Made by a program: the position numbers and the translations under genes. The notes beneath the pieces are model-generated. The model was not told the DNA's origin. It worked only from the letters and a program-made list of their open reading frames with translations, and ran no database searches. Positions 31,303-50,819 of a stretch of 64,000 nt of DNA are shown in pieces. The number at the start of each line of letters is the position of its first letter. The first letter of the stretch is position 1. This DNA is from Terriglobia bacterium (GTDB taxonomy: Bacteria > Acidobacteriota > Terriglobia > Terriglobales > Acidobacteriaceae): assembly GCA_963732045.1 (NCBI GenBank), contig CAVSYI010000008.1:63317-127316 (forward strand). The letters run 5' to 3'.

Positions 31303-31673
31303 AGGAAAGTGCAAGTGTAGCGGGATTGGGCCCGGGAAACAACGCAACAAGTCGAATGGCAAGAGCACAGTGTCATCCTGAGCGGAGCTGAACGTTTCGC
31401 TTGCGAAACGCTCAGCGGAGTCGAAGGACCCACCCTCTCCGCATTGCCATCGCCAGGAATGTTCGTCTGTGGCTCGAGTGCCACTGCGATGTTTGGTCAA
31501 CCGGCTTCGCTGCCGAGCGACGACCGCCCTGATTCCGGCCAAACAAGATCGAATGCGCAGCATCCTTGCGGGAATGATACGTTATACGAATCCAGAAGCC
31601 CTCGGTTGCCAGGAACGAACGGGTCACTCTTGGGGTATGAACTGATGGCACCGCGGCAAGGAACAAACAGAAG

Positions 31674-33267
31674 ATGACAATCAGCAGACGCGAGTTCATC
31701 GCCAGAATCGCGCGGTCTGGCGGCTATCGGCGCCGCCTTCATGACCATGCACTCGCTGGGGCTTCTGGGCATGGTCGAGACCGAGCAGCGGAAGGACTTC
31801 CCCCTGCCGCCCTCGACCGGTCGCGGAACGAAAGTGATTATTCTCGGCGCCGGAATTGCCGGGCTGGTCTCCGCCTACGAGATGCGGCGGGCCGGATTCG
31901 ACTGCACCGTGCTGGAAGCGCGCGAGCGTCCCGGCGGGCGCAACTGGACTCTGCGTGCCGGATCGAAGCTGGCTCTTCAACGATGGGACATCGCAGGCTT
32001 GTACGTTCGACGAGGGAAATTACTTCAACGCGGCCCGGCGCGTCTGCCCTCCATACACAAGACCATGCTGGGTTACTGCAACGAACTGGGAGTGGAACTT
32101 GAGGTCGAGGTAAATAGCTCGCGCAGCACGCTGCTGCAGAGTGACGACGTGTTTGACGGCAAACCCATTCGCCAGGCGCAGGCCATCAACGATACTCGCG
32201 GCCATGTCGCCGAATTGCTGGCCAAATGCGTGCAACAGGGCGCGCTCGATCAGGCCTTCACTCAGGACGACCACGCCGCGGTCATGGAATTTCTCAAGAC
32301 CTATGGCGCCCTGGGAAAGAACTATCAGTACACCGGCTCATCGCGCTCCGGCGACCAGCAATTGCCCGGCGCGGGCGACCAGATTGAAATCCCCCGCGCA
32401 CCTCTCTCTTTCTCGGACCTGCTCAAGTCGAAGTTCTGCCAGCCCATGCTTTTTGAAGAACTGCTCGACATGCAGGCCACCATGTTCCAACCGGTTGGCG
32501 GCATGGACCGGATTCCTTACGCCTTCGCGCGTTCTCTCGGCGATGTCGTCCGCTATAACTCGCCGGTCACCGAAATCAGAAAAACAACCGACGGCGTCAG
32601 GGTGTTGTACCGCAAAGGAGAATCCGGCCCGGTTGAGTCGGTCGAGGCGGCCTATTGCATTTGCGCGATGCCGCTGACCATTCTCAAGACCATACCCAAC
32701 GACTTCGCTCCGCGCGTGAAATCGGCGATCGAGCAGGTCGTCTATGACTCTGCCTACAAAATTGCGTGGGAATCGCGACGCTTCTGGGAGCAGGACGGCG
32801 ACGAGATTTACGGCGGCATCTCGTTTCTTACGACCGGCCCGATCAGTCTGGTCTGGTATCCCAGCGCGAAGCTGATGTCGAAACGCGGCGTACTCATCTC
32901 CGGCTACGCCGTGGAGAACTGGACTGAGTTCGGCAAGCTGCCGAGCCATGAGGCGAAGATTGCTGCTTCCAGAGCCGCGGTGGAAAAACTGCATCCCGGC
33001 AAGAGCAAGGAACTGGAGAAGCCGATTTATATGTCCTGGGGCAAGGTACCTTATAGCCTGGGATCCTGGGTCAGTCGCGGACCTGACTATCCTGCTTCGG
33101 CCGACGACCCTTACTTTCAGGGGCGCCTACAGAGAATTCATCGTTCCCGATGATCGGATCTATTTTGCCGGAGACCACTGCAGTCATATCATCGGCTGGC
33201 AGGAAGGCGCAGCCCTGGCAGCCCAGAGGGCGATCGCGATGATTGTCAGACCGGGTCAACAGCGTAG
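31674..33267 (+). CDS. TAT-exported flavin amine oxidase family protein, several frame changes
   Basis: MTISRREFIARIARSG (twin-Arg) in ORF 31674..32102. VIILGAGIAGLVSAYEMRRAGFDCTVLEARERPGGR in ORF 31741..33153. Short detour through ORF 31856..32113 (FNDGTSQACTFDEGNYFNA). C-terminus YREFIVPDDRIYFAGDHCSHIIGWQEGAALAAQRAI in ORF 32948... Stop placed at TAG 33265-33267, tentative. Confidence 0.75.
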
Positions 33268-33289
33268 GGGCGGACGCTCTCGTCCGCCC
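33268..33289. terminator. GC hairpin between convergent amine-oxidase and OMP genes
   Basis: gggcggacg-ctct-cgtccgccc, 9-bp perfect stem. Same ggcggac/gtccgcc motif as at 13797-13820. Confidence 0.5.
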
Positions 33290-33380
33290 TGGCGGAGCGA
33301 AGCTCCGCTAGCTTCCAGGCGAGCTGCGCCGCCCGCGACGCGAAGGGGCGTCCGGTCTACGCGATTGTTGCTGCTGCATT

Positions 33381-34751
33381 TCAGTGCGCCCGCAGGCGCA
33401 GGAACAAAATCGCACCGACCGGGTGCCCACCGTAGATCGGTTTCAGCGACATCCGGCACGCCGTACCAGGTAAATTGTCCACCCAGCCCAGTCGGACAGA
33501 TGCGGAATGTGGCCGACTTCCCTTTCATAGCCCGCTGTGTAAGCCTGCACTCGGGTGAAATATCGTTCGCTGAATCCGGGCGGTTCGGGATTGCCGCCGA
33601 GCAGAAGCTCATTGGTACGGTCCACATTTTCGATGCGAGTCCAGGCATAGTTGCGCTCGAGAAATCGCACCGTCGATTCCAGCAGATAGCTGTTGCCGAC
33701 GTTGCCTCCGGCAACATCCTGATTTCTGCCCCAGAGCAGCAACGACGCCCAGTTCCCTTTCGGCAAAGGACGGTTGTACTGCACCGACGCGGTCATGCGC
33801 CTGACGTCTTCAGCGGGCGCAAGCTACTCCGGGCTGTGCATCTGCGCAATGGAATATTGCAGACTCCAGTTCTGTCCGGGATTGGCGCGTGACCCGCGCC
33901 GACCACGAGTCTATCTTCCCGGAATTGATGTTCCAGCGGAACTCATCGGGCTCGCGTCCGTGAAATCCCGAGGCTTCCACGCGACGTTACGATGGGTGAT
34001 GCCCAGGGTGACGACATCGGCCGCAATGTGCGTGGAGTCCTGAAGATGATGTCCCAGCGGCGCGATGGGATCTTCCGACGCCGACGCCCGATGCGGATAC
34101 GCCGGCGGCCCCATCGCCGGATCTCCCATGGGCGCGGCGTATACCGACAACAACGTATGCTCCGCCAGACTTGTAGTCGTACAAAGCGGCGAGTTCCATG
34201 AAGAAATCATGAGGATGCTGGCCATCGACGATCGGACGTCCGAATGCCGTTTCTCCCTGCTGGAACAGCTCGGGATAGAACCGCTTCGAAACCGTGGCAG
34301 GTTCAAAGCTGAGCATGGTGCGAAGTGTCAGCGTACCCTTGCCAAATTTTCGTTGCGCCATCGGCATCCACCAGTTGGTGGAAAACAGCTTGTCGTAGCC
34401 GCGCGGACCACTCTGCTGCGTCTCGATTAGAAAACCTTCGCCGTGAAACATGAGCGTCCAACTACCCTTGGTGGTCATGAGCATTTCGGTGGGAGTGGAA
34501 TTGGGCTCTGCGTCAGTGCCTGACGTTGCGTGCTGCAACCTAGACTCAATGAGTGACTTCGGTTGCATGTTCATCTTTTCGGTTGAGGTGTTGTGGGTAT
34601 CCATACCAGGCATGCCGGGCATTTCTTGCGCAGAATGCGACGGTCCCGAAATGTCCATGGGTTCGTCGGAAGTCTGGCCCACAGCCCGAAAAACCGGCAG
34701 TATGAGACACAACAAGATTACGAGAGCAACAAGAAATAGTTTCCGCACCAA
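33381..34751 (-). CDS. Conserved-looking secreted/outer-membrane protein of unknown function with Met/His-rich N-terminal tract; at least 4 frame changes
   Basis: ORFs 33987..34751 (signal peptide, QEMPGMPGMDTHN, WTLMFHGEGFLIETQQSGPRGYDKLFSTNWWMPMAQ), 33911..34306 and 33443..33796. My translation of the last frames gives ...GGQFTWYGVPD / SLKPIYGGHPVGAILFLRLRAH*, stop 33381-33383. Confidence 0.45.
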
Positions 34752-34820
34752 TATCCCCTTGGCGTTAAAAACGAAATGCCGTTCAGGCCTTCCGGCCCGC
34801 AGGATGGAAATTGGTCAGGT

Positions 34821-35171: not shown

Positions 35172-35239
35172 TGCTCATTATATGCGCGAGCCATCACAGA
35201 CTTAAAAAGGAATGAATGGATCAGTTAAAATAAACGCAA

Positions 35240-35278
35240 GCCGGGATGGCGGAATTGGCAGACGCGTTGGACTTAGGA
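35240..35278 (+). repeat. Direct repeat / attL: copy of tRNA-Leu(UAG) nt 1-39 (acceptor 5' strand, D-arm, anticodon 5' stem and loop)
   Basis: gccgggatggcggaattggcagacgcgttggacttagga. Nt 1-25 are identical to 38520-38544 and nt 26-39 to 43618-43631. It diverges after the anticodon loop, with no pairing 3' stem. Confidence 0.85.
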
Positions 35279-35828
35279 ACCTCAAACAGAATTGCGAGGA
35301 ATTGCACGAAGTTGCAAGGGCTTCTGTTTATGCGGGTTTTAGCGATTCAGGCTGGCAACGGCTTGCACGGAATAGCACCAAATTACAAACCAAACTGACA
35401 CCAAAACTGAAACCAAAGTTCCACTTCTTGAACGGCATAATCTAAAAACGTAGCCACAGCGCTTCCTCCACTCTTTCAAGCTTGTTCCCTTTGACTAGAC
35501 CGGCGCGCCAACTCTCAAAGTATTCGCAGAGTGTCGTCATGTGGGAATCCTGAGAGCGAAACGATGTCTTGCAATAGCATTGCCTTCCCAGGCATCATCA
35601 CGGACAAAACTTTTTCGGATTGCTTGTCCACCACTTTCGCTCCAGGTGTTCGATTTTGACATTGCAGACCCGCGGTGACTACCACGTAACGACTTCGTGC
35701 AGGAAGTTGGTACGGAACGAACGGGAGGACAATCGCAAAGGCGATAGGAAAACAGCTTAGCTGGAGGAGGAAATGGTGAGAGCGACACGCACAAGAATGT
35801 ACATCCGATGAGGTATGCCCTCCGTTGA

Positions 35829-37097
35829 CTACCCGGTAGCACGCATAGAATTGCTTCCCGAGCCGAGAGGCACACGAGCGTGGATCGTGGTGCCACGCTT
35901 GGGTTGCGATTCGATTGAAAACGTTCCGTTCACCAATTTTAGCCGCTCCTCCATGCTGATCAGGCCCAAGCCTCGGCTCTCCCTTGCAACTTGGCTAACA
36001 AAGCCCGAGCCGGAGTCGCTAACCGTGAGATGAATCTCCTCCGAAGTTTCCCACAGTTGCGCTTGGAAGTGCCGTACCCCGCTGTGTTTTGCCGCATTGT
36101 GGAGGGCTTCTTGCAAAACTCGGAAGAGGCAAAGATCAACGTCCGGTGACAAAGGGCTAGGCAAATCGTGGGTTTGGAGGTCAATCTCCACTTTCTGCTT
36201 CTCGCCGAATTCTCGGCAGAAGCTTCTCATGGCTCCTGCAATACCCAGATATTCCAGTTTCGCCGAATGCAACTCGTGCGACAAGAATTGAATATCGGCC
36301 GCTATCTCGGAGGTCTGTTTTCGCAGTTCACCGATGCGGCTTGGGACTTCAGACAAATTGGGAGGGCTTTGTTGGAGTTGATCTAACTCGATGGTCAACA
36401 TTGCAAGACGTTGACCGATGTCGTCGTGGAGTTCTCTGGCAATCCGGGAACGTTCCTGCTCTTGTGCCTCCATCATCCTGCGGCTTACGTCTGCAAGGGC
36501 AGCTTCAGCCAGTTTACGCTCGGTGATGTCAACACTAATCCCGATGTAACCCTCAAACGAACGGTCCTGAGTAAACCTCGGTACTCCAATGCCTAGCATC
36601 CACCGATACTCTCCGTCGTGCCGCCGTAGCCGATACTCAATTGTGAATTTCTCTTGCCGATTAAAGGATTGCGAGTAGGTTTCGAGACTCCGCTGCAAAT
36701 CCTCCGGGTGGACACCTTCTGTCCAGCCTTTTCCAAGCTCCGCATCAAGTGATCGTCCGGTAAAATCCAGCCAAGTCTTGTTGAAGTAGGTGCGGAGTTT
36801 GTCCGTGCGCGCCATCCAGATCAACGCCGGAGCAGCGTTGGCGACCAATCGGAAGCGTTCTTCGCTCTCGCGCAGTTTATCTGTGGCTTGCTGCCGCCAA
36901 CGCTCGTAAAGGAGAACCACAAATCCGACACAAATGGCAGCTATAACGTCGTCCAAGAGCGCTAAGAAACCATGAACATTATGAACGTTCAGCCAGACTG
37001 TTAGCCCGCTCCCAAGAAGAAAGACGCAAACACTCGCGCCGATGCTCTTGAATGCTCCACTCCAGCCGTGACTCCACTTGCTGGACTCTTTTGTCAT
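35829..37097 (-). CDS. PAS-domain sensor histidine kinase (HisKA_3/NarX-DesK type), no cognate regulator adjacent
   Basis: 422 aa. Two N-terminal TMs, PAS (FRLVANAAPALIWMARTD...), H-box ARELHDDIGQRL, HATPase (HNAAKHSG...DSGSGF...GLGLISMEERL). Confidence 0.85.
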   Translation of the reverse strand: MTKESSKWSHGWSGAFKSIGASVCVFLLGSGLTVWLNVHNVHGFLALLDDVIAAICVGFVVLLYERWRQQATDKLRESEERFRLVANAAPALIWMARTDKLRTYFNKTWLDFTGRSLDAELGKGWTEGVHPEDLQRSLETYSQSFNRQEKFTIEYRLRRHDGEYRWMLGIGVPRFTQDRSFEGYIGISVDITERKLAEAALADVSRRMMEAQEQERSRIARELHDDIGQRLAMLTIELDQLQQSPPNLSEVPSRIGELRKQTSEIAADIQFLSHELHSAKLEYLGIAGAMRSFCREFGEKQKVEIDLQTHDLPSPLSPDVDLCLFRVLQEALHNAAKHSGVRHFQAQLWETSEEIHLTVSDSGSGFVSQVARESRGLGLISMEERLKLVNGTFSIESQPKRGTTIHARVPLGSGSNSMRATG

Positions 37098-37540
37098 ATA
37101 CAGCTCAAACTAGCTTTATCGCAATCGGGAGGAGCGCATCGGGCATCCTGAGGCAGTTGTCCCTCATGTCTGATTCACTCCTGCGCAATGAGTGAATCGC
37201 CCATGTACAGTTTACACCTCAAGCTGGTGGATGGCTTTAAGCTCGGCTCTTAAACTGGCAATTATTTCCTCTTTTTATTCTTCCTCGGTCAATAATCGAT
37301 GGCGACCTAGCAAAAGTGCTAGCTGACTAGGCACATGAGAGCAGGTATTCTGGGCCAGTTCAGAATCGCAACGCGGTCATGGGCAAGTGTTCGGGAAACC
37401 GACGTTCGGACCCTCACGACTGCATTGCCTTCATTCATGTATCGCTTAAAGCCGGACCATGCAGGTTCGGCTTTTTTGCTCTTAAGGAATTTCTCCAACC
37501 CCAATCAGGCGTCGCCCGGAATATAGCTTCGCCACCAGAA

Positions 37541-37995
37541 TCAGCGACCAAAATGTGCGCGTGAGCGACGCGAGTTTTTCAAAGGCTCCAGCCGGGCCAC
37601 CAATATGATTAGCAACCCGAAGGCTGTCAGAAACGCCATCATCAGTAATGTGGTGAGAATCGAATAAGCCGTCCATCGTTTCCATCGGCTATCGCCCGAA
37701 AATCGCCAGGCGAACAAGAGCAGGACCAGCAGCGAAGAATTGAAGGCGATCAAATTGCAAACCAAATGCAGCGGCTCGTGAATGAAGATCGCATCACCAG
37801 CCACACCGACCCCAGACAGAAATTGAAAGGTTGGAATCAGGACTGCGCCCCGCCCTGCGCCCAGCTCTCTGCCCAGCGCTAAGGCAAATGTCATCAACAT
37901 CAGCCCAAAGACAAGAAAAATTAATCCGTTGTGCCACCCTAAAGCAGTGAATTCAAGGGCGCTGATCGTCCCCCGCAGTGTGTCGTAGTTTGCAG
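37541..37995 (-). pseudogene. DUF998-like membrane protein, 5'-truncated
   Basis: Protein-like part of ORF 37541..38254 begins about ...YDTLRGTISALEFTALGWHNGLIFLVFGLMLMTFALAL, followed by 4 more TMs. The first roughly 40 aa expected for the family are replaced by integrase antisense sequence. Confidence 0.5.
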
Positions 37996-38463
37996 CCCTG
38001 GCCCCCAGATAGACCTTACGATTTGCCTTGATCCTGGCGATACCAAAAATGACGAAGGTCGCACGATCAAGATGACAACTGAAGTCTATGATCTTCTGAA
38101 GCAGTGCGTGGCTGGAAAAGCTGGAAGTGATTATGTGTTTACCAGAGACGGCAGGCCTATCTTGGATTTCCGTGGGGCATGGTGGGCGCTCTGCGTAAAG
38201 GCTGGCGTGGGGAAATTCGGAGCCAAAGACAAGCGCGGTAAACGTCCCTATCAAGGGCTCTCTTTCACGACCTCAGGCGTTCTGCTGTTCGCAATATGGT
38301 GGCGGCTGGAATTCCCGAAGTAGTTTGCATGAAGATCAGTGGCCACAAGAGCAGATCGGTATTTGATCGCTATAATGTCGTATCGACTTCTGACGTGGCA
38401 GAAGCAACGCAGAAGCTCGAAAATCGGAAATTGCAGGCTAAAATGGAACTGACACAAAACTAG
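37970..38463 (+). pseudogene. int: Tyrosine recombinase/integrase, C-terminal catalytic fragment only (plus one frame change)
   Basis: Own translation: ...PQIDLTICLDPGDTKNDEGRTIKMTTEVYDLLKQCVAGKAGSDYVFTRDGRPILDFRGAWWALCVKAG... Then in another frame [45 protein letters not shown]...*, with HxxR, GH and the catalytic Tyr. The N-terminal SAM-like domain and box I Arg are missing. Confidence 0.8.
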
Positions 38464-38519
38464 CACCAGCACTTCAGAGACAACATGGAAAGTCGCTGAA
38501 GACCGCATAAACACTACGT

Positions 38520-38544
38520 GCCGGGATGGCGGAATTGGCAGACG
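38520..38544 (+). tRNA. tRNA-Leu(UAG) nt 1-25 (5' piece of interrupted gene)
   Basis: gccgggatggcggaattggcagacg, identical to 35240-35264. Ends inside the 3' strand of the D-stem. Abuts 43618 to give a complete tRNA. Confidence 0.85.
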
Positions 38545-38833
38545 TACATCGGCCGGCGCGTCCGCCTCAAGTTCATCGATGACATCAGGAAGGCGAATGC
38601 CCAGAAGAGGAAGCGGCCGTCGACCGTCTCCTACAGCGATGCCATTCTCCTCCCGCCGGCTCCGACGGTGTCTATCGGACGCCTAACCATCACTGCCATG
38701 TATGCCAGGACGTTTTACGCGAAGAGGAAGGATGCAAAGCACTGTAGCGAACGGTGTCAAAAAAGAGCCGAACGGGTGATTGTCGGAGATAAGTTACGAA
38801 TAGGTTTGACGAAGAGGGAAAAAGGGCAAAGCC

Positions 38834-39407
38834 ATGAAGAAGCAAATCGAGCAATTGAAGAAACAGATCGCGGACCTGCAGGCGTTCTGCGCGGTCCTGA
38901 CGCCGGTCTTTGAGAAAGAGTATCGGCGCAGGAAGAAGGCGAAGGCTCTGTGACACCCGAAAGAGAAAAGAGCTCCAAGAGATTGTTGCGGAGCAGGTCG
39001 CCGAGAGATGGCCGCCGAGGCCGCCGTCGACAAGATCGCGGCCATGAAGCCCAGATCTTCGAAGCCGGAGGGGTGGGACTTCGAGGAGGAGCGCGCAGAG
39101 CACGCTCTTCAGCAGAGGCAGAGGGCTCGGGTGGCGAAGCGGCCGGTGCGCAGGAAGCCGGCGCCGGAGTGTCCTCCGAGGCTATTTCCCATGGGAAAGC
39201 CAGGGTACTTCGTCAACGATGAATTTGAAATCGTCGGTCCCCGCGGCCGCAGGCTCAGCACAGACGCTTCACCCCTACACCGGCCGGCCACGGGTCCAGG
39301 TTTATGTTGAGACAAATATGGAGGGTAAGCGGTTGAGGGCGTGGCTGGATCCGGAAGAGGAGTACAAGAAAGCCTATTTGCTGAAGTACGGTGTAGATCC
39401 TGCATGA
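38834..39407 (+). CDS. Hypothetical coiled-coil protein (frame changes likely)
   Basis: MKKQIEQLKKQIADLQAFCAVLTPVFEKEYRRRKKAKAL, then KELQEIVAEQVAER / AAEAAVDKIAAMKPRSSKPEGWDFEEER... / ...VQVYVETNMEGKRLRAWLDPEEEYKKAYLLKYGVDPA in shifting frames. Confidence 0.3.
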
Positions 39408-39655
39408 CGGTGTAGTTTTTGGCATGGCACTGTTTTTAGAATCGCGCAGTAGAATTAGAAATCAATTCTCTCTACTCCGGCTCAGAAAAATGCTACACCG
39501 GTGTAGAAGTTGCGAGTGGCCGACAGTGAAAACGCAGTTGCGACCGCAGCTGTAAAGTGTTGATTCTATTACTGCGGTTTTACTGCGGTTTTGACCTCAG
39601 CTGCGGACAGTTGGCCGATCAGTTGGCAGCCGCCAGCTCAGAAATCCCTTCCCGA

Positions 39656-39949
39656 ATGACCCCACGTAAGAAAACCCGCACCTACTATGGCAAGCCATGC
39701 GACCGCCACGGCGACGTTCTCCGGTACAGGAGTAGCCGCGGATGTGTCGAGTGCGCTTATGAAGCCAGCCAGCGGTATGCTGCCGACAACCCCGTCAAGA
39801 AGCGTCAGCAAGACCGGCGATGGAAGCGCATCAATAGAGAGCTGATCTCCAAGCGCCGGACGACTCCAGAGTATCGCGCGCAAGTCCGAGCCTATTACGC
39901 CCGCCGTGGTAATCGTTGCACCCCATCGACCACGCTCAAAGCCGCATAA
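39656..39949 (+). CDS. Small Zn-ribbon-like basic protein (phage-type)
   Basis: ATG 39656 within ORF 39557..39949: MTPRKKTRTYYGKPCDRHGDVLRYRSSRGCVECAYEASQRYAADNP... Confidence 0.4.
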   Translation: MTPRKKTRTYYGKPCDRHGDVLRYRSSRGCVECAYEASQRYAADNPVKKRQQDRRWKRINRELISKRRTTPEYRAQVRAYYARRGNRCTPSTTLKAA

Positions 39950-40179
39950 ATAAAGGGTCGCGCAGCCCGACGCCCGCACACAAAGTTCGGCCGCTCAGCC
40001 TAGGGAGCCTTGATTTCTTTCCAGAACGAAAGCCGGCCGGAGAGCCCCCTGCGCGGCGCCTACATGTAGTGGCGCGACCGCAGAACTACATTTTTGCCAG
40101 TTGAAATATTTATTCAAAGAAATCAAAGAAATCAAAAAGTCCTGCGTTTCCAAGGACTTCCGAAGGGAAATAATCAAAC

Positions 40180-40878
40180 ATGAAATCAAAGAAATCAAAG
40201 CGCGGCGGAGCCCGTTTGGGAGCCGGCCGGCCACCAAAACCCCAGGCTGGCGCGCCAGAACAAGTCCTATCCGCTCCGATTTCCATCCTCGATCGTGACG
40301 TAGCCACCCTCACCGACGACGAGCGCCGAGAGTATGACGCCGCGGCGATTGCCGAAGGCTGGCGCCCTTCGACGGCCGTCCTCCTAGCCTGCTTCCAGCA
40401 TGACCACTCAAAAAACGAACGGCTGACCTGGGAGGAATGGCGCTCCAACCTCCGGAACCCCTCCGTGGTGCCGACGGTTCAGCCAGAACCCCTCCGATGG
40501 AGTGTCCAAAGCCAGTGCTACGAGCCGATTTCAGCCCCTTCAATTTCCGACGTAGTCCAGCCTACCCCTTTCGTAGAATCGCCTCCTACAGAAATAGCCT
40601 CCTGCAAGTCCTTTCCCTGCAACACCGAAAAACAAGAAAATGACGACTTTTCGACGCAGCCATCACCGCAGCCGGTCCCATCCCCTTCACCTTCGCGCCT
40701 TGACCGCGCAATCGCAATCGAAGCCAGCCGGCCCCGCCCAAGCGCAGTCGAGCAGGCCATCTTCCAGGCCGACCAGCCCTCCACTCGCAGCCGCTCCTAC
40801 ACCTACTCCGAAGTCGAAGGCATGCGACCGACGTCCGGCAATCGATCGCACGATACCTACGAGCCGGCAACGGACTAA
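40180..40878 (+). CDS. Hypothetical protein with N-terminal GAGRPPK-type basic motif and Pro/Ser-rich C-terminal half
   Basis: 232 aa. MKSKKSKRGGARLGAGRPPKPQAG. This motif is common at N-termini of phage DNA-binding/small-terminase-like proteins, from recollection only. Confidence 0.45.
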   Translation: MKSKKSKRGGARLGAGRPPKPQAGAPEQVLSAPISILDRDVATLTDDERREYDAAAIAEGWRPSTAVLLACFQHDHSKNERLTWEEWRSNLRNPSVVPTVQPEPLRWSVQSQCYEPISAPSISDVVQPTPFVESPPTEIASCKSFPCNTEKQENDDFSTQPSPQPVPSPSPSRLDRAIAIEASRPRPSAVEQAIFQADQPSTRSRSYTYSEVEGMRPTSGNRSHDTYEPATD

Positions 40879-40881
40879 CCC

Positions 40882-41425
40882 ATGATCAGAAGAAGACGCC
40901 ACCTCCTCCCACCGCCTCCTCCCCCTCCCAAGCTCAAGATCCCCGAACCCTCGCCGGTCGTAATGATTCGCTTCGAAGATCAATGGCGAGTTGAACTCCC
41001 CAAGATCACACCAACGGCTGGCACGTCAGATTTTCCAGGCGCCGACCGTCGATGAACTCGTGAAAAAGCTTTGCCGAGCATTGCATCACGCTCAAGCAAC
41101 AATCGCGATTCTGTCCCAGCAGTTCCAGAGAACAAGAAAGGTAGATCATGTCCGACGCAACACAGCAGCATCATCTCGAAGTTTCACGCTGCACCCATGC
41201 GCAGGTGGAGACCATCGCCAACCAAGGGCACGCGGATTCGTAAACGCCGTCCTCCAGCTCTCCGAGAACGCCGGCAAGCAAGCCGGCGCCATCTGCGAGA
41301 ACAGCTCACTGTTGTCTCGAGCTGATCGAAGTCGACCGCACGCTAACCGCCTCGCTGAAGAAGCAAACCGTCTCGAGCCGGTCACTCTTCAAACGCATCT
41401 TCGGCAAACTCTAAACCCCTCGGAC
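40882..41425 (+). CDS. Hypothetical protein(s), frame changes
   Basis: MIRRRRHLLPPPPPPPKLKIPEPSPVVMIRFEDQWRVELPKI..., continuing in ORF 40991..41476 and ending ...SLFKRIFGKL* (taa 41423-41425). Confidence 0.25.
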
Positions 41426-41436
41426 TTCGAGCCGAA

Positions 41437-42142
41437 TTGCCTGGAGAGAAAAGAGCCACCTTGTTTTTCTTCTTAGAACACTCCAACATCCACCGTGCCC
41501 TCCAAGGCGATCGTCCAGCCGTCCTAAAAGCCAAGGACGTGGAATCATGGGAAAGCCTCGCTCAGGAGTACGGCATCACCATCGTGTCAGACTCAGCAGC
41601 CGGGAATCGTGAGAGCCGAACATCCTCCAATCAACCCCCGAAAAGCTGATGCGTTATCTCCAAGAGGCCGGCATTCAAGCCATTTCATCGAGATCGAAGA
41701 CGTTTTCTGCTTCTCCCCCAAGACCATTGAGGCCGGCGCCCTTGACGGTATGTTTCGCAGCACGCCGCGCAACGTCAAAGAAGCCCAGGCAAGAGACGCT
41801 CTGACCCAATCACTTCAGGGCATCGCGACAGATCGAATCATGGGACGAGATGAAGAATCTCTTGTGGTCGGTCATCCCCGCTGAAGGCCTCACCATCGGT
41901 GGCCCTGGAGCCGACATGTCCGACGAGACGTTGAGAAGACTGTCGTCGAGCAAATGCGAAAGGCCGGCATCAAGCTTCCAGACGATCCAGGCGACGGCTG
42001 GCGTACTCAAGGCACGGGACAGAATCTCGACGGCTGGCACGGTCTGACGCCGGAGCAAGAATACGAACAGTTCCACAAAGAGACACCCAAGGACCGCAGC
42101 AGCGCCGTCCCCGCTGGCTTCGGTGACGAAGATTACAGATGA
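41437..42142 (+). CDS. Hypothetical protein(s), frame changes
   Basis: ORFs 41437..41649, 41609..41884, 41850..42047 and 41954..42142 overlap head-to-tail in different frames, consistent with one or two genes broken by indels. Confidence 0.25.
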
Positions 42143-42316
42143 TCACCCGCCCTATCTCTGATCGACGCTTTGAACTGTCGGAGGCCGACATCCGCTCTCT
42201 CTCCCGCGGACTCCTCACGACCTCCGGCAAAACTTCAACCCCGCAGAAGTGAAACAGATCCTCCATGAATCACTCCGGCTCGCTGTCACCACAAATCCCA
42301 ACGAAGGAAGAATCCG

Positions 42317-42574
42317 ATGAACACTCTCCGCACCTACCTCCGCTCCTACCTCGGCATCGTTGATCCTTTGCCGGCAACCGAACCTGTCACCATCGCGCCT
42401 TGTGGCTGCAAAGAACAACTCACAGAAATTAAGAAGCACTTGGCAGCTCTCACCGGCGAATGCGTGCTACGTGTCCCAGGCTTTCTCGCGTTGACCGAAC
42501 ACCAGCGCGGCATTGCAATCGAAGCTCTGGCAAAAGCCCGTGGAGTTGAAATCCCCGCCGGCACCGTCCAGTAA
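42317..42574 (+). CDS. Hypothetical protein (85 aa)
   Basis: Intact ORF MNTLRTYLRSYLGIVDPLPATEPVTIAPCGCKEQLTEIKKHLAALTGE... Confidence 0.35.
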   Translation: MNTLRTYLRSYLGIVDPLPATEPVTIAPCGCKEQLTEIKKHLAALTGECVLRVPGFLALTEHQRGIAIEALAKARGVEIPAGTVQ

Positions 42575-42626
42575 CCTCCACCTCTTAACCCTCCGGTGCG
42601 CACCGGAAGAAGAATCTCCCTCCCAA

Positions 42627-43617
42627 ATGTTCAACGTAATTGAGAATCCCTCCCCTGATTCCGCCGACGACGTAGAGCCCCAAGCTCCGGCGCCGGCAAT
42701 TCCCACCTCCCCGATGTGATCAACTCCGTCGCCCAGGCTCCTGTCGCCCAGGCAACGCAAGCTCCTGTTCCAATGTGGAAGGGCATCCTGGCCGGCGCTC
42801 TCGCCGGTCTCGCTGGTGCCGCCGGCAGCAAGTCTTTCGGCGCCGGTCTCGCTGGTGGTGCTGGTGGTGAGCTTCGGCAACAACAGCAGAACATCGAAAA
42901 CGATCAAGCCGGCGAAGGCGCAGGCTTCCGCATCAAGTTTCAGGACGCGCAGTCTGCAAACCTCGTGGCCGAAGCGCACATCAAGGATATGCAGCTTCAT
43001 TCATTGCCACAGGAACTGCAAGATCAGGCGAACGAGCAGCATCAACCTCGACAAGCAGCTTCAGGATCTCGGCCTTCAGTCCCGTTATCGTCGCACCCAA
43101 CACCAGCGACGGAGCCGAGACGGCAATGAAGCAGTTGACTGACACTCATGGTGGAGTGCCGCAGTTGTTCGTTCACAACACCGGTGGTCAGTTGATCGGA
43201 TACGACCTGGGTCAGCTCTCCCAGTCGCCACAGATCGTCAACAAAGTGAATCAGTATCGTGTGATGACTGGGCAGGATCCTATCGACGCCCAGACTTTCC
43301 GCCAGATACCACCGCAGAACAAGAAGGACCTGATTTCCCAGGCTCTCAGCTTCGGCACCGAAGTCCCCACAAAAGCGAATGCGGTAGAGCTGGCGCAGAA
43401 GTACCAGAACTACGCGGACGCTTACCGGAAGAACCAGGATGCGATCTCACGGTTCAGGCGAAGCTCGACGACACCGCGAAGCATTACGCAGATATGTCAG
43501 CCGGCCTCGACAGACACGAAGTTAAACAGGCTGGAGCGGTTCAGGCTGCGAAAACGCAGGCTGAGGTGGCGAACAAGCCGAGCCGTGGTGATTCGGATCC
43601 TGTGGTTGCTGCGACTC
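42627..43617 (+). CDS. Hypothetical Gly-rich membrane/structural-like protein(s) running into the tRNA junction (frame changes; 3'-open at insert end)
   Basis: MFNVIENPSPDSADDVEP..., WKGILAGALAGLAGAAGSKSFGAGLAGGAGG, MKQLTDTHGGVPQLFVHNTGGQLIGYDLGQ..., ...AKTQAEVANKPSRGDSDPVVAAT. The reading frame is still open at 43617. Confidence 0.3.
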
Positions 43618-43678
43618 CGTTGGACTTAGGATCCAATGCCCAAAAGGCGTGCAGGTTCAAGTCCTGTTCCCGGCACCA
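43618..43678 (+). tRNA. tRNA-Leu(UAG) nt 26-86 (3' piece of interrupted gene)
   Basis: cgttggacttaggatccaatgcccaaaaggcgtgcaggttcaagtcctgttcccggcacca. Anticodon stem TTGGA/TCCAA, loop CTTAGGA, long variable arm, T-loop TTCAAGT, acceptor TCCCGGC pairing with GCCGGGA of 38520, discriminator A, CCA encoded. Confidence 0.85.
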
Positions 43679-43945
43679 CTTCATACGCTCTTCGGCCTCA
43701 CCGATCTGAGTTCCGCGGACCCTGACTCGCACCTTCGCAAGAATTCTCCCATAAGCGACTGAGCGCCGGTCAGAGCCCGCGATAGCCGACGCCCTCGGTA
43801 ACTTTTATAGATTGCTAACGCTCATTGGCAGTGGAATCTTCTTATGAAGCGCAGAAATCCTGAAGAGGTCAAATATCCACGAGGTTGTTCGATGTCCAGC
43901 GCCGCTAGCAAAAACTACCTTGTGTCTGATTCAGTTGATATTTCT

Positions 43946-44561
43946 TTAGGAGCTCTGCACCTTTTCGCACCTTCTGCCGCTCCACAACCCGCCAAAGCCG
44001 GAGGCTAATGCGTCACGCATCTGAAGACGGGCTCGTGAGAGTCTGGTCTTCACATTCGCTTCGGACAGCTTAAGGATCTGCGCGGTTTCCGTGATACTGA
44101 GGTGGTTTACATCGCGCAGTATCAATATCTCGCGGTATTTCTCGGGGAGAGACACCAGGGCCTTGGTCAGCGCATCACGAAGTTCGCGGCGCTCCAGAGC
44201 CTGCGAAGGGATTTCGCGCCAGTCCGCGAAATCCTTTGGGATGTAATCGCCGTCGTCGCTTTGCTGTCCCTGTTCGATCGATTCGTACAAGTAGCGACTG
44301 TCCTTGCGTAGCCGCATTTTCGCTTCGTTGATCGCGATTTGGATCAGCCACGTGCTGAACTTTGCCTCCTGACGAAAGCGTGCCAGAGCTTTGAAGGCTT
44401 TCAGGATGGCCTCTTGTGCCACCTCTTCAGCGTCCGCATCGTTTTTCACGATCGCCACGGCCGCAAGAAACACGGCACGCTCGTACGGCCGGACCAGTTG
44501 GTAGAAAGCTTCGGCATCAGCTTCGCCGACAAGCCATCAAACCTCCAATCTCTCTGGCCAT
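43946..44561 (-). CDS. ECF-type sigma-70 family RNA polymerase sigma factor, frame-split near 5' end
   Basis: ORF 43946..44473 (region 2: FLAAVAIVKNDADAEEVAQEAILKAF...FSTWLIQIAINEAK; region 4: ILRDVNHLSITETAQILKLSEANVKTRLSRAR). The upstream frame gives MAREIGGLMA from cat at 44559-44561. 616 nt = 3n+1. Confidence 0.8.
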
Positions 44562-44660
44562 CAGATTCAGAGATTTAAAAAAGGTTACTCACGGCGCGGT
44601 TTGGACCACTCTGTATACTGGCGGCGAATTGCCTCCATCTTCTTGATTTAGAATTGATAC

Positions 44661-45830
44661 TTGTCTGGTTTCATGAGGCTCGATTTGATAGCAATAGCCC
44701 GCCGCCCCCCAGTCATTATTGTTTTTTTGCTGATCGTAGCTGTGCTGGCATTCGCCGGCGTCGGCCGTCTGGTGAATCGGTTTCACGCACAGGAAGAGGC
44801 GTTGGCGCGTCATCTGTATCAACGCGGCGTTAAAGCACAGAGTGAGAATCACCCGGAGGAGGCGCTCGGCGCTTTTCGCGCCGCGCTCAGCTACAGTCGC
44901 GACAACTTTCAGTACCAACTCAGCCTGGCGCGTGCCCTCCGTGACACCGGACGGACCGCCGAGTCTGAAACCTATCTCATCAGGTTATGGGAGCGCACTC
45001 CGCAGGAAGGCGCGGTGAATCTGGCGTTGGGGCGCCTGTTCGTGCGTCAGCGCGTCTTCGATAAAGCCATCCAGTATTATCACTATGCCATTTACGGTGT
45101 CTGGCCCAGCGATGCGGAAAGCAAGCGGCGCGATGCGCAATTCGAATTGATCGAGTTTCTGCTACAGCAGAACGCCTATCCTCAGGCGCAAGCTGAGCTG
45201 ATTACCATGGCTTCGGCTTTGCCAACCGATCCCAGCGTACACCTGCGGGTAGCCGATCTTTTCATGCTGGCCAAGGATTATGATCGTGCGCTCGCGCAAT
45301 ACCAGCAGACCCTGTTGACCGATGCTCATAACCAGGGGGCATTGTTGGGCGCCGGACAGGCATCATTCCAGTTAGGACGTTTTCGCACCGCTCGAACGCT
45401 ATCTGCAGGCCGCGGTTCGTGCCGATCCTCAGAATACGTCTGCGCAGCGTCTGCTGGAAACTGCCGGAGAGGTATTGGAGTCGGACCCTTCTGCGCCGCG
45501 CATCTCCGAGGCCGAGCGGAATCGCCGCTTAGGTGCGGCATTACCCTGGCAGGCGGCCGTCTTGACGATTGCGCGCAGAGCCGCGGAATCGATCTGGCTG
45601 GACAATCTTCCTCCAATGACTTGCCTCATCTGAAAGCCATGTGGCTGGAGATGAAACCCAAAGTAACAAAATTATCCGGACCGCACTCTGTATCGCGGAT
45701 CCGCAATTGCCGGACGAACTCATGAACCTGGTTTACAGCATCGAACAGCAAACCGAGTCGGTGTGCGGGTCAGCCGAGGGGCCTGGACAGAGCTCTGCTG
45801 CTGCTTGCGCAAGATCATGCCGGGGTTGAG
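44661..45830 (+). CDS. TPR-repeat membrane-anchored protein, frame changes in 3' third
   Basis: ORF 44661..45725. N-terminal TM (VIIVFLLIVAVLAFAGV), TPR-like repeats (ALGAFRAALSYSRDNFQYQLSLARAL..., KAIQYYHYAIYG..., YDRALAQYQQTLL). Continuation ERYLQAAVRADPQNTSAQRLLETAGEVLESDP lies in another frame. Confidence 0.6.
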
Positions 45831-45832
45831 CA

Positions 45833-47617
45833 ATGAGCGACACAGTCGATTCCGCTGCCCAAAGTCACTCTCGAGTCGCCAGGAAGGCGACGACGCACCC
45901 AATCCCAGGATCACAAGTCGATATTGGTTCACTCTCAGCACCACCCGGGAAGAGCGATTCTTTCTGGTGCTGGCTGTATTCATCGGCGTATTCTCAGCGC
46001 TGGCGGTCGTGTGCTTTCGCCTGGCCATCGACTGGAGCAAAATCTGGTTGCTCGGCCCAGTGCCTGAGCCACATAACTGGCGCCTGATTGCCGTCCCTGC
46101 GCTCACCGAGTCTGGTGGTGGCTTTTCTGGTGATTCATGTTTTTCCGTTGGCTCGCGGTAGCGGCGTCAACCAAACCAAAGCTGCTCTCTATATCTATAA
46201 CGGATACATTCCATTTCGAACCGCGGTGGGGAAATTCATTACTGCTGCCCTGGCGATCGGTTCCGGGCAGTCGCTGGGACCGGAGGATCCCTCACTGCAA
46301 ATCGGCGCCAGCCTGGCCTCGGCACTGGGACGACGTCTCGATCTTTCGCGCGAGCGCCTGCGTCTTCTGGCGCCGGTGGGCGCTGCTGCTGGACTGGCCG
46401 CCGCCTTTAATGCACCGATCTCGGCCGTTCTGTTCGTTATCGAAGAAGTAATCGGTCGCTGGAGTGCGGGCATACTAGGTTCGGTTGTCCTCTCGGCGAT
46501 TTCAAGCGTAGTAGTAGTGCGCTGGTTTCTGGGCGCTGAACCTCTTTTCCGCATTCCCGCCGTTGGTTTGGTGCAGCCTGCCGAGTTGCTGGCCTACGCG
46601 ACGCTTGGGCATCGTCGGCGCATTCGCCGCGGTATTCTTTGCCAGGGCCATCGCATATTTGCGGCCACGCCTGCGCGCCTGGCCCCGTTGGACACAATAT
46701 TTCCAGCCGATGATGGCCGCTGTGGTGATTGGCCTGATCGGTTTTCTGGGCGCTCCCCAGGTGATGGGAGCGGGCTACGAATATATAGACCAGGCCATGC
46801 ACGACCAGTTCACCTGGAAGATGCTGGCCATTCTGGCTCTGCTGAAAATTATCGCCACCACTTTGTCATTCGTCACCGGCACGCCAGGCGGAATGTTCGC
46901 TCCCACACTTTTTGTCGGGGCCATGCTGGGAGGCGCAATCGGAGGTTTGGAACGTCACTTCTATCCGGCGTTCACCGGATCCACCGGCACTTACGCTTTG
47001 GTCGGCATGGGAGTACTGTTCGCGGGATTTCTCCGCGCGCCGATGACCTCGGTTTTCATGGTGCTTGAAGTCAGTGGCAACTACTCCATTATCGTGCCCG
47101 TGATCGTTGCCAATACGTTGGCGTATGTTATTTCCCGGGCTTTGCAGCCTACACCGATTTTCGACCTTCTCACTCGCCAGGACGGCCTCGACTTGCCATC
47201 GCTCGAAGAACAACGGGAACAGACAGTGCTACGCGTCGAAGATGCGATGAGGCCGCACCTACTCCGGTATTGAACGGCGGAGATTCCGTGGACCAGGCGT
47301 TACAACGCGTACAAGATTTGTCCGGAGATTTTTTAGTGCGATTGCATCCCAGTGGTTGGAGAAGCGTGACTGCCGACACTCTGAAACGTCTCGCGGGCGA
47401 GGGCAAAGGAGAGATGACCTTGGGCTCGGCGCTGGTTACCCCGGCTCTGCCCTACCTCCATCCCGATCACACACTCGAGACTGCTCTCCGCTACGTCTAT
47501 CAGGTCCCATTTGTTCCGGTTGTGCATCGCGCCGATTTCGGCCACCTCGAAGGGGTAATCTCGCGCGATGAAGTGCTGGAGAAATACAGGATGGCGCAGC
47601 GCGATGAAACTGACTAA
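45833..47617 (+). CDS. ClC-family chloride channel/antiporter with C-terminal CBS pair, at least 4 frame changes
   Basis: ORFs 45833..46087, 45763..46161, 46088..47068, 46563..47273 and 47270..47617 read colinearly. GSGVNQTKAA, IGSGQSLGPEDPSLQIG, GTPGGMFAPTLFVGA, then CBS-like LPYLHPDHTLETALRYVYQVPFVPVVHRADFGHLEGVISRDEV. Confidence 0.8.
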
Positions 47618-47774
47618 ACGCTTCGCCTCGGTATTTCGCCGGCCTGGCGGAAGCAAGGGGTTCACGAGATCGCGTAAACAATTCACCTGGGAATTAGAAG
47701 GTTTGCATCGCGGACAATCGAACATTGGCGCCAGGCAATAAATAAAACGATACCCGCTCCGGAGTTGACTCCAT

Positions 47775-49463
47775 ATGCGCAAAATCATTTCGATATCATC
47801 CATTTTCCTCCTCTTACTCGCGCCTCTCGCTTGGCCCCAAGCCACGAAAATGCCGGTCAGCCGGCGAGGACCGAGTGTCGCCACCGGCAGCCAGGGCGTC
47901 GTTGTCTCCGGTAGGCCTGTCGCCACCGCAGCTGGCATCAAGATTCTGAAACAGGGCGGCAACGCTGCTGACGCAGGCGCCGCTACTCTGCTCGCACTCT
48001 CCGTGACCTATGTAGGCGCGTTCTGCGTGGGAGGAGAGATCCCCATTCTGGTTTACAACGCCGACGGGAAAAGCGTGAAGCTGCTGGAGGGACAAGGCGA
48101 AGCTCCACGCGATCCCAAAGCGATCGCCTGGTACATGAAACACGGAATCCCGGACGGGGACGTCAAGGCAGCTGCCGTGCCCGGCACGATCGATGCAATC
48201 GTCACCCTGCTGAAACTTTACGGGACCAAGAGTCTCGATGAGGTCGTGCAGCCGACGCTGGCCATTCTGGACGCTGGCGGCCCTACTTGGTATATCGACA
48301 CCGGCAGCGACAAGAAGATCGAAACCGGCGTGCACTGGCAGGCGGATATGGCAGTGACCTTTCGCAAACTGGTGGATTCTGAAAAAGCAGCGAAAGGTAC
48401 GCGGGAGCAGAAACTGCAGGCTGTCTCAGACCGTTTCTATCGCGGCGACATCGCCGATGCCCTCGAAGCCTGGTATACGGAAAAGGGAGGTTTTCTTCGC
48501 AAGGCGGATCTGGCCGCGCACAAAACTCCAGTGGTCGATCCGCTCCAAACCACCTACCGAAGCTACACGATTTATAAAGCGGGTCCTTTGACGCAGGGTC
48601 CTTATCTCGCACAGACGCTGCGCCTTTTGGAAGGCTTCGACCTGAAGAAGATGGGGTTCAATTCGGCGGACTACATCCACACGGTAATTGAAGCGGAGAA
48701 ACTGGCGCTGGCAGATCGCGACGAGTATTACGGCGATCCGAACTTTGTGAAGGTGCCGATGCAGCAGTTGCTTTCCGATCAGTACACCGAAATGCGGCGC
48801 CATCTGATCGATCCAAAAAAGGCGTCTCTCGAGCTCCGTCCAGGCGATCCCTACAACATGAAAGCCACCAAGCCGCCCACCATTACCGGCCCGTGGCATG
48901 GCGGAACCACCGTCATGTGTGTGACGGATAAGTGGGGGAACGTCATCGCGGCCACTCCCAGCGGCCTGTCAAGCACAGCGGGCGTAGCAGGACGTACGGG
49001 AATTATTCACGGCAGCCGACTCAGCAGCCTGAACACATTTGCGGGAACTCCGAACGTGATCGAGCCGGGCAAACGGCCGCGAATCACACTGAGCCCCACG
49101 CTGCTTTTCCATGACGATCAACCCGTGATGGCGATCTCGGTAGCGGGAGGCGACCAACAGGACCAGGCAGCCATCCAGGTCATCCTTAATTACGTCGAAT
49201 TCGGCATGAATCCCGAGGAAGCGTTCAAGGCGCCGCGTTTCTCCACGACGCATTTCATCAGCTCCTTCGGTCAGGACCGTGCCACCCTGGGCAGCCTCTC
49301 TGTGCCCAACAACTTACCCGAAGCAGTTCAGGACGAATTGAGATCTCGCGGCCACTTGGTAACTGTGATCCATGAGGGAGTGGGCGGAGTGGCGCTGATC
49401 GGCATTGACCCCAAGACCAGGCAGGCTACTGCGGTCGGTCCGGCCGCTGGAAAAATGGAATAG
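47775..49463 (+). CDS. ggt: Gamma-glutamyltransferase family protein
   Basis: 562 aa, signal peptide, autoprocessing/nucleophile region PWHGGTTVMCVTDKWGN, ISVAGGDQQDQ. Confidence 0.85.
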   Translation: MRKIISISSIFLLLLAPLAWPQATKMPVSRRGPSVATGSQGVVVSGRPVATAAGIKILKQGGNAADAGAATLLALSVTYVGAFCVGGEIPILVYNADGKSVKLLEGQGEAPRDPKAIAWYMKHGIPDGDVKAAAVPGTIDAIVTLLKLYGTKSLDEVVQPTLAILDAGGPTWYIDTGSDKKIETGVHWQADMAVTFRKLVDSEKAAKGTREQKLQAVSDRFYRGDIADALEAWYTEKGGFLRKADLAAHKTPVVDPLQTTYRSYTIYKAGPLTQGPYLAQTLRLLEGFDLKKMGFNSADYIHTVIEAEKLALADRDEYYGDPNFVKVPMQQLLSDQYTEMRRHLIDPKKASLELRPGDPYNMKATKPPTITGPWHGGTTVMCVTDKWGNVIAATPSGLSSTAGVAGRTGIIHGSRLSSLNTFAGTPNVIEPGKRPRITLSPTLLFHDDQPVMAISVAGGDQQDQAAIQVILNYVEFGMNPEEAFKAPRFSTTHFISSFGQDRATLGSLSVPNNLPEAVQDELRSRGHLVTVIHEGVGGVALIGIDPKTRQATAVGPAAGKME

Positions 49464-49658
49464 ACCCCAGGCGCCACGAGCGGATTGCTGCCTAGCAGCC
49501 TATCCTCTGCGCGAAATTCTGAGCGACGATACCGCGAAGGATGCCTTGAAAAGAATCTTCTTTTGGAACGCGTTAAATTATGCGGCAACATCGGGAGAAG
49601 CAATTGCCAGTGTCCGCACAAGGCACTTCGCGGTCAACACTAAAGGAAAGAGACGCCG

Positions 49659-50819
49659 ATGACACTCATGAAAGCGAGCTTGAAGACTGCCCTGCTTTTT
49701 TGTTTCTTAGCAACGCCGTCGAGTTCAGTCTACGCGCAGTCACCCAGTGACGACGTTCTTTCTCAACGAGCAGACGAAGCCATCAAAGCGCTAAGGAACC
49801 AAATGAAAATTCCCGGCACCAGCGTGGCTGTGGTGCGTGATGGAAGGATCATCAAGGCGACAGGGTACGGCCTCGCCAACGTAGAGCTGAACGTTCCGGT
49901 GACGCCAGCGACAATCTTTCAGGCGGGCTCAACCGGCAAACAATTCCTGGCGACGGCGATCCTCTTGCTGGCCGAAGAAGGCAAGCTCTCACTCGAGGAC
50001 AGCATCACGAAATATTTTCCCGAAGCGCCGGAGTGGTGGAAGCCGATCACCATTCGCCACTTGCTGACCCACACTTCAGGCCTGCCGGACATTTGGGGAG
50101 AGTCCGACAGCAGAGGAATGTTCGCGAATGCACTCGTCGACATGCGCCACGACTATACAGAAGATGAACTGCTCCGCACATTCATCAAGATGCGGCCCAG
50201 CTTTAAACCAGGAGAGAAATGGGAGTATTGCAACACTGGCTACCAGATTCTTGGCTTTTTGATTCGACGCCTGACCGGCAAGTCTCACAGCGATTTCATG
50301 CGCGAACGTGTCTTCCGGCCGCTCGCCATGGATACTGCAAGAGTCATCAGCGAATCCGACATCGTCCCCAACCGCAGCAGCGGCTACGTGATCGTCAACG
50401 GGCAACTAAAAAATCAAGAATGGATCGCGCCGTCGTTGAACACTACAGCGGACGGACCGTATTACATGACGGTCCTCGACCTTGCTAAGTGGGACGCCTC
50501 ACTCTACACGGAAACAATCCTGAAACGAACCAGCCTTGAGCAGATGTGGACCGCACAGGCAAAGTTAAACTCGGGAGAAACATACCCCTACGGTCTGGGG
50601 TGGTTTCTCGCCGACGTGAACGGCCATCGCTTGATGTACCACACCGGGGGAAATCAGGGCTTCTTCGTGAACATCTCTCGCTACGCAGACGATCGTTTAA
50701 CTATCATCGTGATGAACAATCTGGATGAGGACCACTGCGACACCCTGACAATTTCCGGAGCTATTGCTTCAATCTACATCCCGGCAACAAAAGGAAAAAA
50801 TCCGATTAAGGACTGGTAA
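49659..50819 (+). CDS. Serine hydrolase, class C beta-lactamase/PBP-like family
   Basis: 386 aa, signal peptide, SxxK motif FQAGSTGKQF, YxN-like YCNTGY. Confidence 0.8.
   Translation: MTLMKASLKTALLFCFLATPSSSVYAQSPSDDVLSQRADEAIKALRNQMKIPGTSVAVVRDGRIIKATGYGLANVELNVPVTPATIFQAGSTGKQFLATAILLLAEEGKLSLEDSITKYFPEAPEWWKPITIRHLLTHTSGLPDIWGESDSRGMFANALVDMRHDYTEDELLRTFIKMRPSFKPGEKWEYCNTGYQILGFLIRRLTGKSHSDFMRERVFRPLAMDTARVISESDIVPNRSSGYVIVNGQLKNQEWIAPSLNTTADGPYYMTVLDLAKWDASLYTETILKRTSLEQMWTAQAKLNSGETYPYGLGWFLADVNGHRLMYHTGGNQGFFVNISRYADDRLTIIVMNNLDEDHCDTLTISGAIASIYIPATKGKNPIKDW

Follow-up and report, generated by a model that had tools for sequence, protein, structure and literature searches.

For the tRNA-gene islands of tyrosine integrases, the usual case is that the 3' part of the tRNA gene is replaced and the recombinant gene is left with the promoter that it had before (PMC8371274, citing Williams 2002). 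The Islander pipeline admits islands that have a 5' fragment upstream (PMC4383910). With the pTN3-like integrases of Thermococcales, a tRNA gene's 5' half serves as attB, a configuration that is 'seldomly encountered in bacteria' (review, PMC8371274). The locus described here is a tRNA-Leu(UAG) gene that lies in three pieces in the DNA of a Terriglobia bacterium (assembly GCA_963732045.1, contig CAVSYI010000008.1, positions 63,317 to 127,316 of the forward strand). The whole analysed stretch of 64,000 nucleotides (nt) is referred to as the window, and coordinates are those of the window unless another locus is named. The pieces are separated by a decayed integrative island of 3,241 bp (E1; 35279-38519, no strand assigned) and by a phage-derived insertion of 5,073 bp (E2; 38545-43617, + strand). 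E1 adds a new bacterial case to a mode of integration that is known but rare, and the disruptive insertion of phage DNA represented by E2 is a one-off event. The arrangement was probably produced by two successive events at the tRNA gene, the integration of E1 followed by the insertion of E2, the latter either illegitimate or by an element that was subsequently eroded.

Piece 1 (35240-35278, + strand; GCCGGGATGGCGGAATTGGCAGACGCGTTGGACTTAGGA) comprises nt 1-39 of the tRNA, piece 2 (38520-38544, +) comprises nt 1-25, and piece 3 (43618-43678, +; CGTTGG...CACCA) comprises nt 26-86, including the encoded CCA. When the window sequence was read, all three were found exactly where the first-pass annotation had placed them. 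Joined together, pieces 2 and 3 gave 86 nt, which ARAGORN folded into a single class-II tRNA-Leu(tag) with the anticodon UAG and an encoded CCA, bearing out the claim that the two pieces abut exactly. The same 86-nt sequence was obtained by adding nt 40-86 to piece 1. Pieces 1 and 2 are identical over 25 nt, and their identity ends at exactly 25 nt, while pieces 1 and 3 share exactly 14 identical nt, without leftward extension. These 14 nt form a direct repeat (CGTTGGACTTAGGA; left copy 35265-35278, +; right copy 43618-43631, at the start of piece 3), which covers the anticodon stem and loop and is the presumed crossover region. Two copies were counted in the window both of the 25-mer (with up to 3 mismatches allowed) and of the 14-mer, against 0.00 expected (100 shuffles), in agreement with the earlier statement that the identities are beyond chance. 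No intact tRNA-Leu was found in the window by ARAGORN or Rfam, as had also been claimed for tRNA-Leu(UAG), and the only intact tRNA gene there is a tRNA-Ala(CGC) (7569-7644, - strand).

Piece 1 had been described as a duplicate of nt 1-39 that diverges thereafter. The extent of nt 1-39 was correct, and an imperfect tRNA-likeness was found to continue to position 35281 (T>A at nt 40, CC at nt 41-42). In sequence the piece is indeed a copy, but it is not merely a duplicate: the integration of E1 exchanges the gene's 5' half, and piece 1 represents the native 5' part in its displaced position, i.e., attL of E1, whereas piece 2 belongs to the tRNA copy that was regenerated by E1. A promoter-like site (TTAAAA-18-TAAAAT; 35202-35231, +) is located upstream of piece 1.

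Related loci were obtained by an exact scan of species-representative genomes with nt 26-83 of the tRNA, which yielded 12 loci, one per assembly. All 12 originated from metagenome-assembled genomes (MAGs) of Terriglobia (Acidobacteriota), long-read soil MAGs in which the tRNA was identical and uninterrupted (12/12) and was seen in one copy per genome (12/12). The window segment 33380-35190 was orthologous (75-83% identity) to the DNA immediately 5' of the tRNA in L001, L002, L004, L005, L006, L011, and L012. The TAAAAT context was also present upstream of the intact tRNAs in L003, L004, L005, L011, and L012, and the one before piece 1 is the native promoter context. Empty sites were found in L004, L005, L006, L011, and L012, where the orthologous flank and the native promoter stand directly before an intact tRNA, without an island. 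On the other side, the flank that is conserved downstream in the relatives is matched by window positions 56855-59036 and in L001 begins 48 nt past the tRNA. From this comparison of flanks, the ancestral locus was therefore composed of flank, promoter, tRNA, and flank. The upstream and downstream conserved flanks are 21.6 kb apart in the window.

The locus had initially been interpreted as nested insertions at a tRNA hot spot. Successive insertions at a hot spot were supported, as the relatives have an intact tRNA between the same conserved flanks and the layout of piece 1, E1, and piece 2 recurs in L002 without E2. The nesting had to be revised: E2 is not inside E1 but interrupts the tRNA copy regenerated by E1, and it bears no hallmark of self-mobility. 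The hot spot is also larger than reported, since the conserved downstream flank is reached only at 56855, so that positions 43679-56854 are lineage-variable as well.

E1 is bounded by pieces 1 and 2 and is related to elements in L002, L010, L001, L009, and L015-L017. A tyrosine-integrase remnant (38000-38463, +) is located just before piece 2 on the same strand and reads toward the tRNA. It represents the C-terminal half, corresponding to residues 171-313 of the L009 integrase, with one frameshift, and the N-terminal half is missing. The integrase motifs R..HxxR and GH..Y are legible in the remnant (FHDLRRSAVRNM and GHKSRSVFDRYN). In L009, an intact integrase ORF (open reading frame) of 333 codons (PF00589, 1.3e-16) ends 39 nt before the tRNA on the same strand. 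In L002, nt 1-39 and AACC come after the native flank; an island of 5 kb, in which a PAS/HisKA_3 kinase and the remnant of an integrase are encoded, then leads to the intact tRNA, with no E2. The homologue of this kinase in the window is a cargo gene of E1, encoding a PAS/HisKA_3/HATPase_c histidine kinase (35829-37097, -). The P' arm of E1 (35279-35420, +) carries the conserved motifs TGTTTATGCGGG, TAGCACCA, and AACTGACAC and is 73% identical to the P' arm of L015. The P arm (38464-38519, +) is conserved in the L016 and L017 junctions and in L010 and L001, where an E1-type P arm lies immediately 5' of the intact tRNA. Motifs common to the P and P' arms flank the core.

A metagenome scan with nt 1-39 plus ACC resulted in three short soil contigs (L015, L016, and L017). 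These junction contigs (L017, 677-718 and 2303-2501; L016, 228-269; L015) lead from the integrase and the P arm through tRNA nt 1-39 and AACC into element DNA. For L016 and L017, the order is integrase C-terminus, P arm, nt 1-39, AACC, and other element DNA, and the distal DNA of L017 matches positions 865-1051 of L010, in the distal part of that locus. By their sequence, the L016 and L017 junctions look like the attP or tandem junction expected for an element that carries the tRNA 5' part, and such attP-like junctions suggest that active members of the E1 family exist.

E1 thus combines the features of a tRNA-integrating tyrosine-integrase island: an integrase by the att site, a tRNA fragment and a regenerated tRNA in direct orientation, an empty site in relatives, and, in L016 and L017, an attP or tandem junction. 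Its identity block is the 5' part of the tRNA and its integrase is upstream on the same strand, which matches the 5'-half-replacing configuration. Strand exchange presumably took place in the anticodon loop, at whose 3' end the identity block stops. The layout in the window and in the relatives marks E1 as the decayed member of an element family that presumably integrates at this loop and exchanges the gene's 5' half. In L001 (oriented 6505-7540), approximately 130 nt of E1-type P arm are found directly upstream of the intact tRNA, with no displaced 5' fragment; the element remnant there seems to have become a permanent upstream region of the tRNA.

E2 splits the tRNA between nt 25 and 26, in the centre of the palindrome ACG|CGT, with 0 bp duplicated or lost. 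In L002, L010, L016, and L017, the P arm continues into nt 1-25 and these into nt 26-86, a continuity that E2 breaks in the window. The ORFs of E2 are mainly on the + strand. Two of them have weak PHROG matches to phage zinc-finger proteins, and the ORF at 39557-39949 (+) has weak matches to phrog_15231 (1.8e-6) and to the endonuclease VII family (4e-4). The last gene (42716-43617, +), for which three frame corrections were needed, is a truncated phage gene homologous to P0002 (532 amino acids [aa], E 5e-51) and P0003 (511 aa, E 8e-32). The alignment starts at approximately residue 40 of the targets, ends at their residues 281 and 325, and reaches within 19 nt of the junction with piece 3, leaving the gene without about 185-230 C-terminal codons. 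P0002 is encoded on a 39-kb IMG/VR viral contig, together with an SU10-type adaptor gene and an integrase adjoining tRNA-Leu(CAG). With the phage homology and the cut gene taken together, E2 is therefore phage-derived DNA, and its right edge is not a natural gene boundary.

No Pfam domains were found in the six X-masked reading frames of E2 (no recombinase, transposase, or reverse transcriptase), no inverted or direct terminal repeats were found at its ends, and the window scan at the gathering threshold gave no Rfam match in it. At the DNA level, E2 had no match in the phage records, and a comparison of E1 with plasmid records gave nothing useful. The leftmost E2 ORF had no homologues among 5.8 billion proteins. 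When viral contigs were scanned, neither the E2 protein nor the L009 integrase had a match, nor did nt 1-39 or nt 37-83 of the tRNA, and only the P0002 contig was recovered in a profile scan of viral contigs. A 27-mer across the left junction of E2 was absent from the JGI metagenomes. The IMG/VR contig with the E2-gene homologue (L013, which equals L018; 18552-19974) is a prophage with an integrase beside tRNA-Leu(CAG).

Several known types of insertion were considered for E2 and rejected. With no transposase domain, no terminal repeats, and a duplication of 0 bp, E2 does not qualify as an insertion sequence or a transposon, and a group I or group II intron was discarded with no Rfam family at the locus and no reverse-transcriptase domain. 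It was likewise not accepted as an integrase-borne prophage or island, having phage homology only, with neither an integrase of its own nor flanking att repeats. Recombinases that act at the anticodon loop leave a duplicated core at the junctions, serine recombinases leave 2 bp, and transposases usually leave a duplication. Because the junction sequences lack such traces, E2 is not ascribed to any of these enzymes. In particular, a 2-bp serine-recombinase core or a target duplication of CG is incompatible with the junctions. Nor does a blunt restriction cut at CG^CG account for both the break and the fragment, as E2 starts with TA... and ends with ...TC.

In the proposed history, the tyrosine integrase of E1 would first have recombined with the tRNA gene at the anticodon loop, the attP of E1 carrying tRNA nt 1-39 immediately 3' of the integrase gene. 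This integration would have moved the native promoter and the native nt 1-39 (piece 1) to the far end of the element. The regenerated gene would then have consisted of the element-borne nt 1-39 and the chromosomal nt 40-86 and would have been driven from element sequence. E1 would later have decayed, with the loss of the N-terminal half of its integrase. In what was presumably the second event, the phage-derived E2 would have entered between nt 25 and 26 of the regenerated copy. The favoured route is illegitimate insertion, in which a fragment of phage DNA would have been captured by end joining at a double-strand break. Alternatively, E2 may have been an element whose interior was later deleted to within about 19 nt of the right end. 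These two routes are proposed because no recombinase, transposase, or terminal repeats were found and the right edge lies inside a phage gene.

The exactness of the insertion could also be explained if E2 were a mobile element, present or former, of an unrecognised kind that inserts without duplication and site-specifically at the junction of the D stem and the anticodon stem, being mobilised in trans or having lost its recombinase by internal deletion. Nothing was gained or lost at the nucleotide level, the site, 2 nt in front of the anticodon stem, falls in the middle of a 6-bp palindrome, and the 19 nt or less at the right end that are outside the gene homology could be a terminus; tRNA-Leu genes are, moreover, used by relatives of the donor phage. 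Such an element is given a small but real chance, as the six frames are devoid of recombinase, transposase, and reverse-transcriptase domains, the ends lack repeats, and no second example was found, either in the JGI metagenomes by the left-junction 27-mer or among the related tRNAs, which were uninterrupted in 12/12. The E1-type (5'-replacing) or classical (3'-replacing) prophage, reduced to E2 by one or two later deletions that ended at nt 25/26, is quite improbable. The donor-type phage does integrate beside a tRNA-Leu gene, classical integrases are located 3' of the same tRNA in L010, L011, and L012, and the decay of prophages by deletion is, as generally known, common. However, recombination at the anticodon loop would leave duplicated tRNA sequence at the junctions, the 3' fragment in L012 begins at nt 37 and not at nt 26, and the end-points of the deletions would have to coincide exactly, with nothing lost or doubled. 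That the pieces make up a split tRNA gene that functions, with separate transcripts that are joined or assembled as RNA in the manner of some archaea, would agree with the exact abutment of pieces 2 and 3 and with a promoter-like site upstream of piece 2. It is nevertheless extremely improbable: the duplex of leader and trailer had an energy of -32.7 kcal/mol compared to the shuffle mean of -35.9, with 381 of the 500 shuffles as good or better, neither an intron nor a ribozyme family was matched in the Rfam scan of the window, the DNA between the pieces is phage coding sequence, and the gene is continuous in 12/12 relatives.

An error of assembly, or a minority or dead-end variant of the population, was considered as well, since the window comes from an indel-rich long-read MAG. 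Its low consensus quality is shown by frequent frameshifts in conserved chromosomal genes, which were located by comparison with orthologues in the related MAGs (long-read soil MAGs themselves) at ~29000, ~30350, and 33116, at several points in 33390-34814, and at ~46560-46600. The genes concerned encode a membrane protein of 534-559 aa, an amine oxidase, the ~490-aa product of the gene flanking the tRNA, and a CLC channel. In addition, the tRNA is apparently single-copy in the relatives and CUA is used, so a disrupted copy should be deleterious. Chimeric joins, on the other hand, have one arbitrary junction or occur in repeats, whereas the two junctions in this case meet at the exact nucleotide and have no sequence in common. 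The right junction is also in the public record: the database protein P0001 (NCBI/ENA, from a 132,402-bp contig) is identical to the window ORF 43126-43629, which crosses 43617/43618, and the junction of E2 and piece 3 is therefore present in the deposited assembly. E2 as an assembly artefact is unlikely, and the chance of error and population variant together is judged to be low. The density of frameshifts in E2 was dropped as a sign of old decay, conserved chromosomal genes in the window being frameshifted at a similar rate. Because the assembly is indel-rich, neither the E2 frameshifts nor the single one in the integrase remnant were counted as decay.

Some points weigh against the succession of E1 and E2 insertions as proposed above. 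The mechanism by which E2 was inserted is one that we infer, the left end of E2 is uninformative, and an internal deletion may have left a genuine, very short right terminus, in which case E2 was once a complete element. The E1 islands of the window and of L002 have little in common beyond the ends, the kinase, and the integrase remnant, and they may have arisen by common descent or by independent integration. With the indel-rich assembly, ORF-level calls within E2 are unreliable and pseudogene calls in the window are unsafe. Lastly, a tRNA gene that looks single-copy in 12/12 relatives and serves a codon in use is hard to square with viability if the disrupted copy is the sole one.

For the tRNA, the consequence is that the copy regenerated by E1 is inactivated and the window is left without a functional tRNA-Leu(UAG), while CUA is used 3.8 times per 1000 codons in the window genes. 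Either the genome has another copy of tRNA-Leu(UAG) beyond the window, or the population contains some other allele besides the interrupted one. If the tRNA is truly single-copy in this genome, its interruption is a viability puzzle. It is very improbable that the locus is either an undescribed exact, duplication-free tRNA-gene insertion at the junction of the D stem and the anticodon stem or the sole CUA-decoding tRNA gene interrupted in a living bacterium. The latter, if true, would imply RNA-level repair, heterozygous chromosome copies, or an unknown decoder. Piece 1 is still behind the native promoter. If the 14-bp repeats (35265-35278 and 43618-43631) recombined or underwent slippage, E1 and E2 would be lost together and the native gene restored behind that promoter. 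This deletion is the only such route to the native gene.

The 13 kb that separate the 3' end of the tRNA from the conserved downstream flank (43679-56854, no strand assigned) are lineage-variable and belong to the 3' side of this hot spot. The genes there are ordinary accessory genes and encode, among others, an ECF sigma factor, a TPR protein, a CLC channel, GGT, proteins of the beta-lactamase fold, TonB_C, STAS, and DUF1259. No integrase was found in this segment. A tRNA 3' fragment was sought at its right edge and was not found, the sole match being 12 nt long (49810-49821, E 0.24). This exact match to the tRNA 3' end (TTCCCGGCACCA) is within an ORF of the beta-lactamase family and is probably due to chance. 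Upstream of the locus, the amine-oxidase segment at 31345-33385 is missing between matching blocks in L001, L004, L005, and L011 and is partial in L002 and L006; it is a further variable insert. Integrase genes or fragments on the opposite strand were observed just 3' of the same tRNA in L010 (7275-7736, -), L012 (oriented 6289-6657), and L011 (oriented 5967-6149), and L012 has a 50-nt tRNA 3' fragment (nt 37-86; oriented 7837-7886) 1.7 kb downstream of the tRNA. Classical 3'-replacing elements therefore use this tRNA too, and both sides of the gene are targeted in the clade.

The E1 family can serve as a test set for island-finding tools and for the transcription of such tRNAs, as its loci include one integrase in intact form, both attL and attR as well as attP-like junctions, and also empty sites. 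The element remnant seems by now to be the permanent region upstream of the tRNA in several species. Annotation of such loci calls for caution: ARAGORN and Rfam are silent here, so the MAG would seem to lack tRNA-Leu(UAG).

Among the known systems, the split and tri-split tRNA genes of Nanoarchaeum and Caldivirga are similar to the window locus in that tRNA pieces are encoded far apart. In one archaeal case, the split lies at position 25/26. The window locus differs in having no complementary leaders, in being bacterial, in its encoded CCA, and in an interruption that is absent in relatives. The skin element in sigK, the nifD element, and the comK prophage resemble E2 in that several kb of mobile DNA lie within a gene, which would be restored by the removal of this DNA. 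E2 differs from them, as it has no recombinase and no flanking repeats, and regulated excision is not indicated; the only restoring repeats are the 14-bp cores of E1, which would remove E1 and E2 together.

E1 is comparable to the tRNA-gene islands and prophages of tyrosine integrases (Williams 2002 scheme; Islander) in having an integrase by the att site and a displaced fragment and a regenerated gene at its ends. It shares with them the identity block ending at the anticodon loop, the arm motifs that flank the core, and the empty sites in relatives. The usual islands replace the 3' part of the tRNA gene, whereas E1 replaces the 5' part and the promoter. Integration of this kind, with replacement of the 5' half including the promoter, is rare in bacteria (PMC8371274), and the Terriglobia loci provide a small bacterial family of it. 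Compared with the pTN3-like elements, E1 is bacterial (Terriglobia), a 3.2-kb remnant, and has a truncated integrase, and the comparison with them is one of configuration. Within that configuration, the two are alike: the 5' half is supplied by the element, the integrase is upstream of the regenerated tRNA on the same strand, and the tRNA is expressible from transcription of the element or the integrase.

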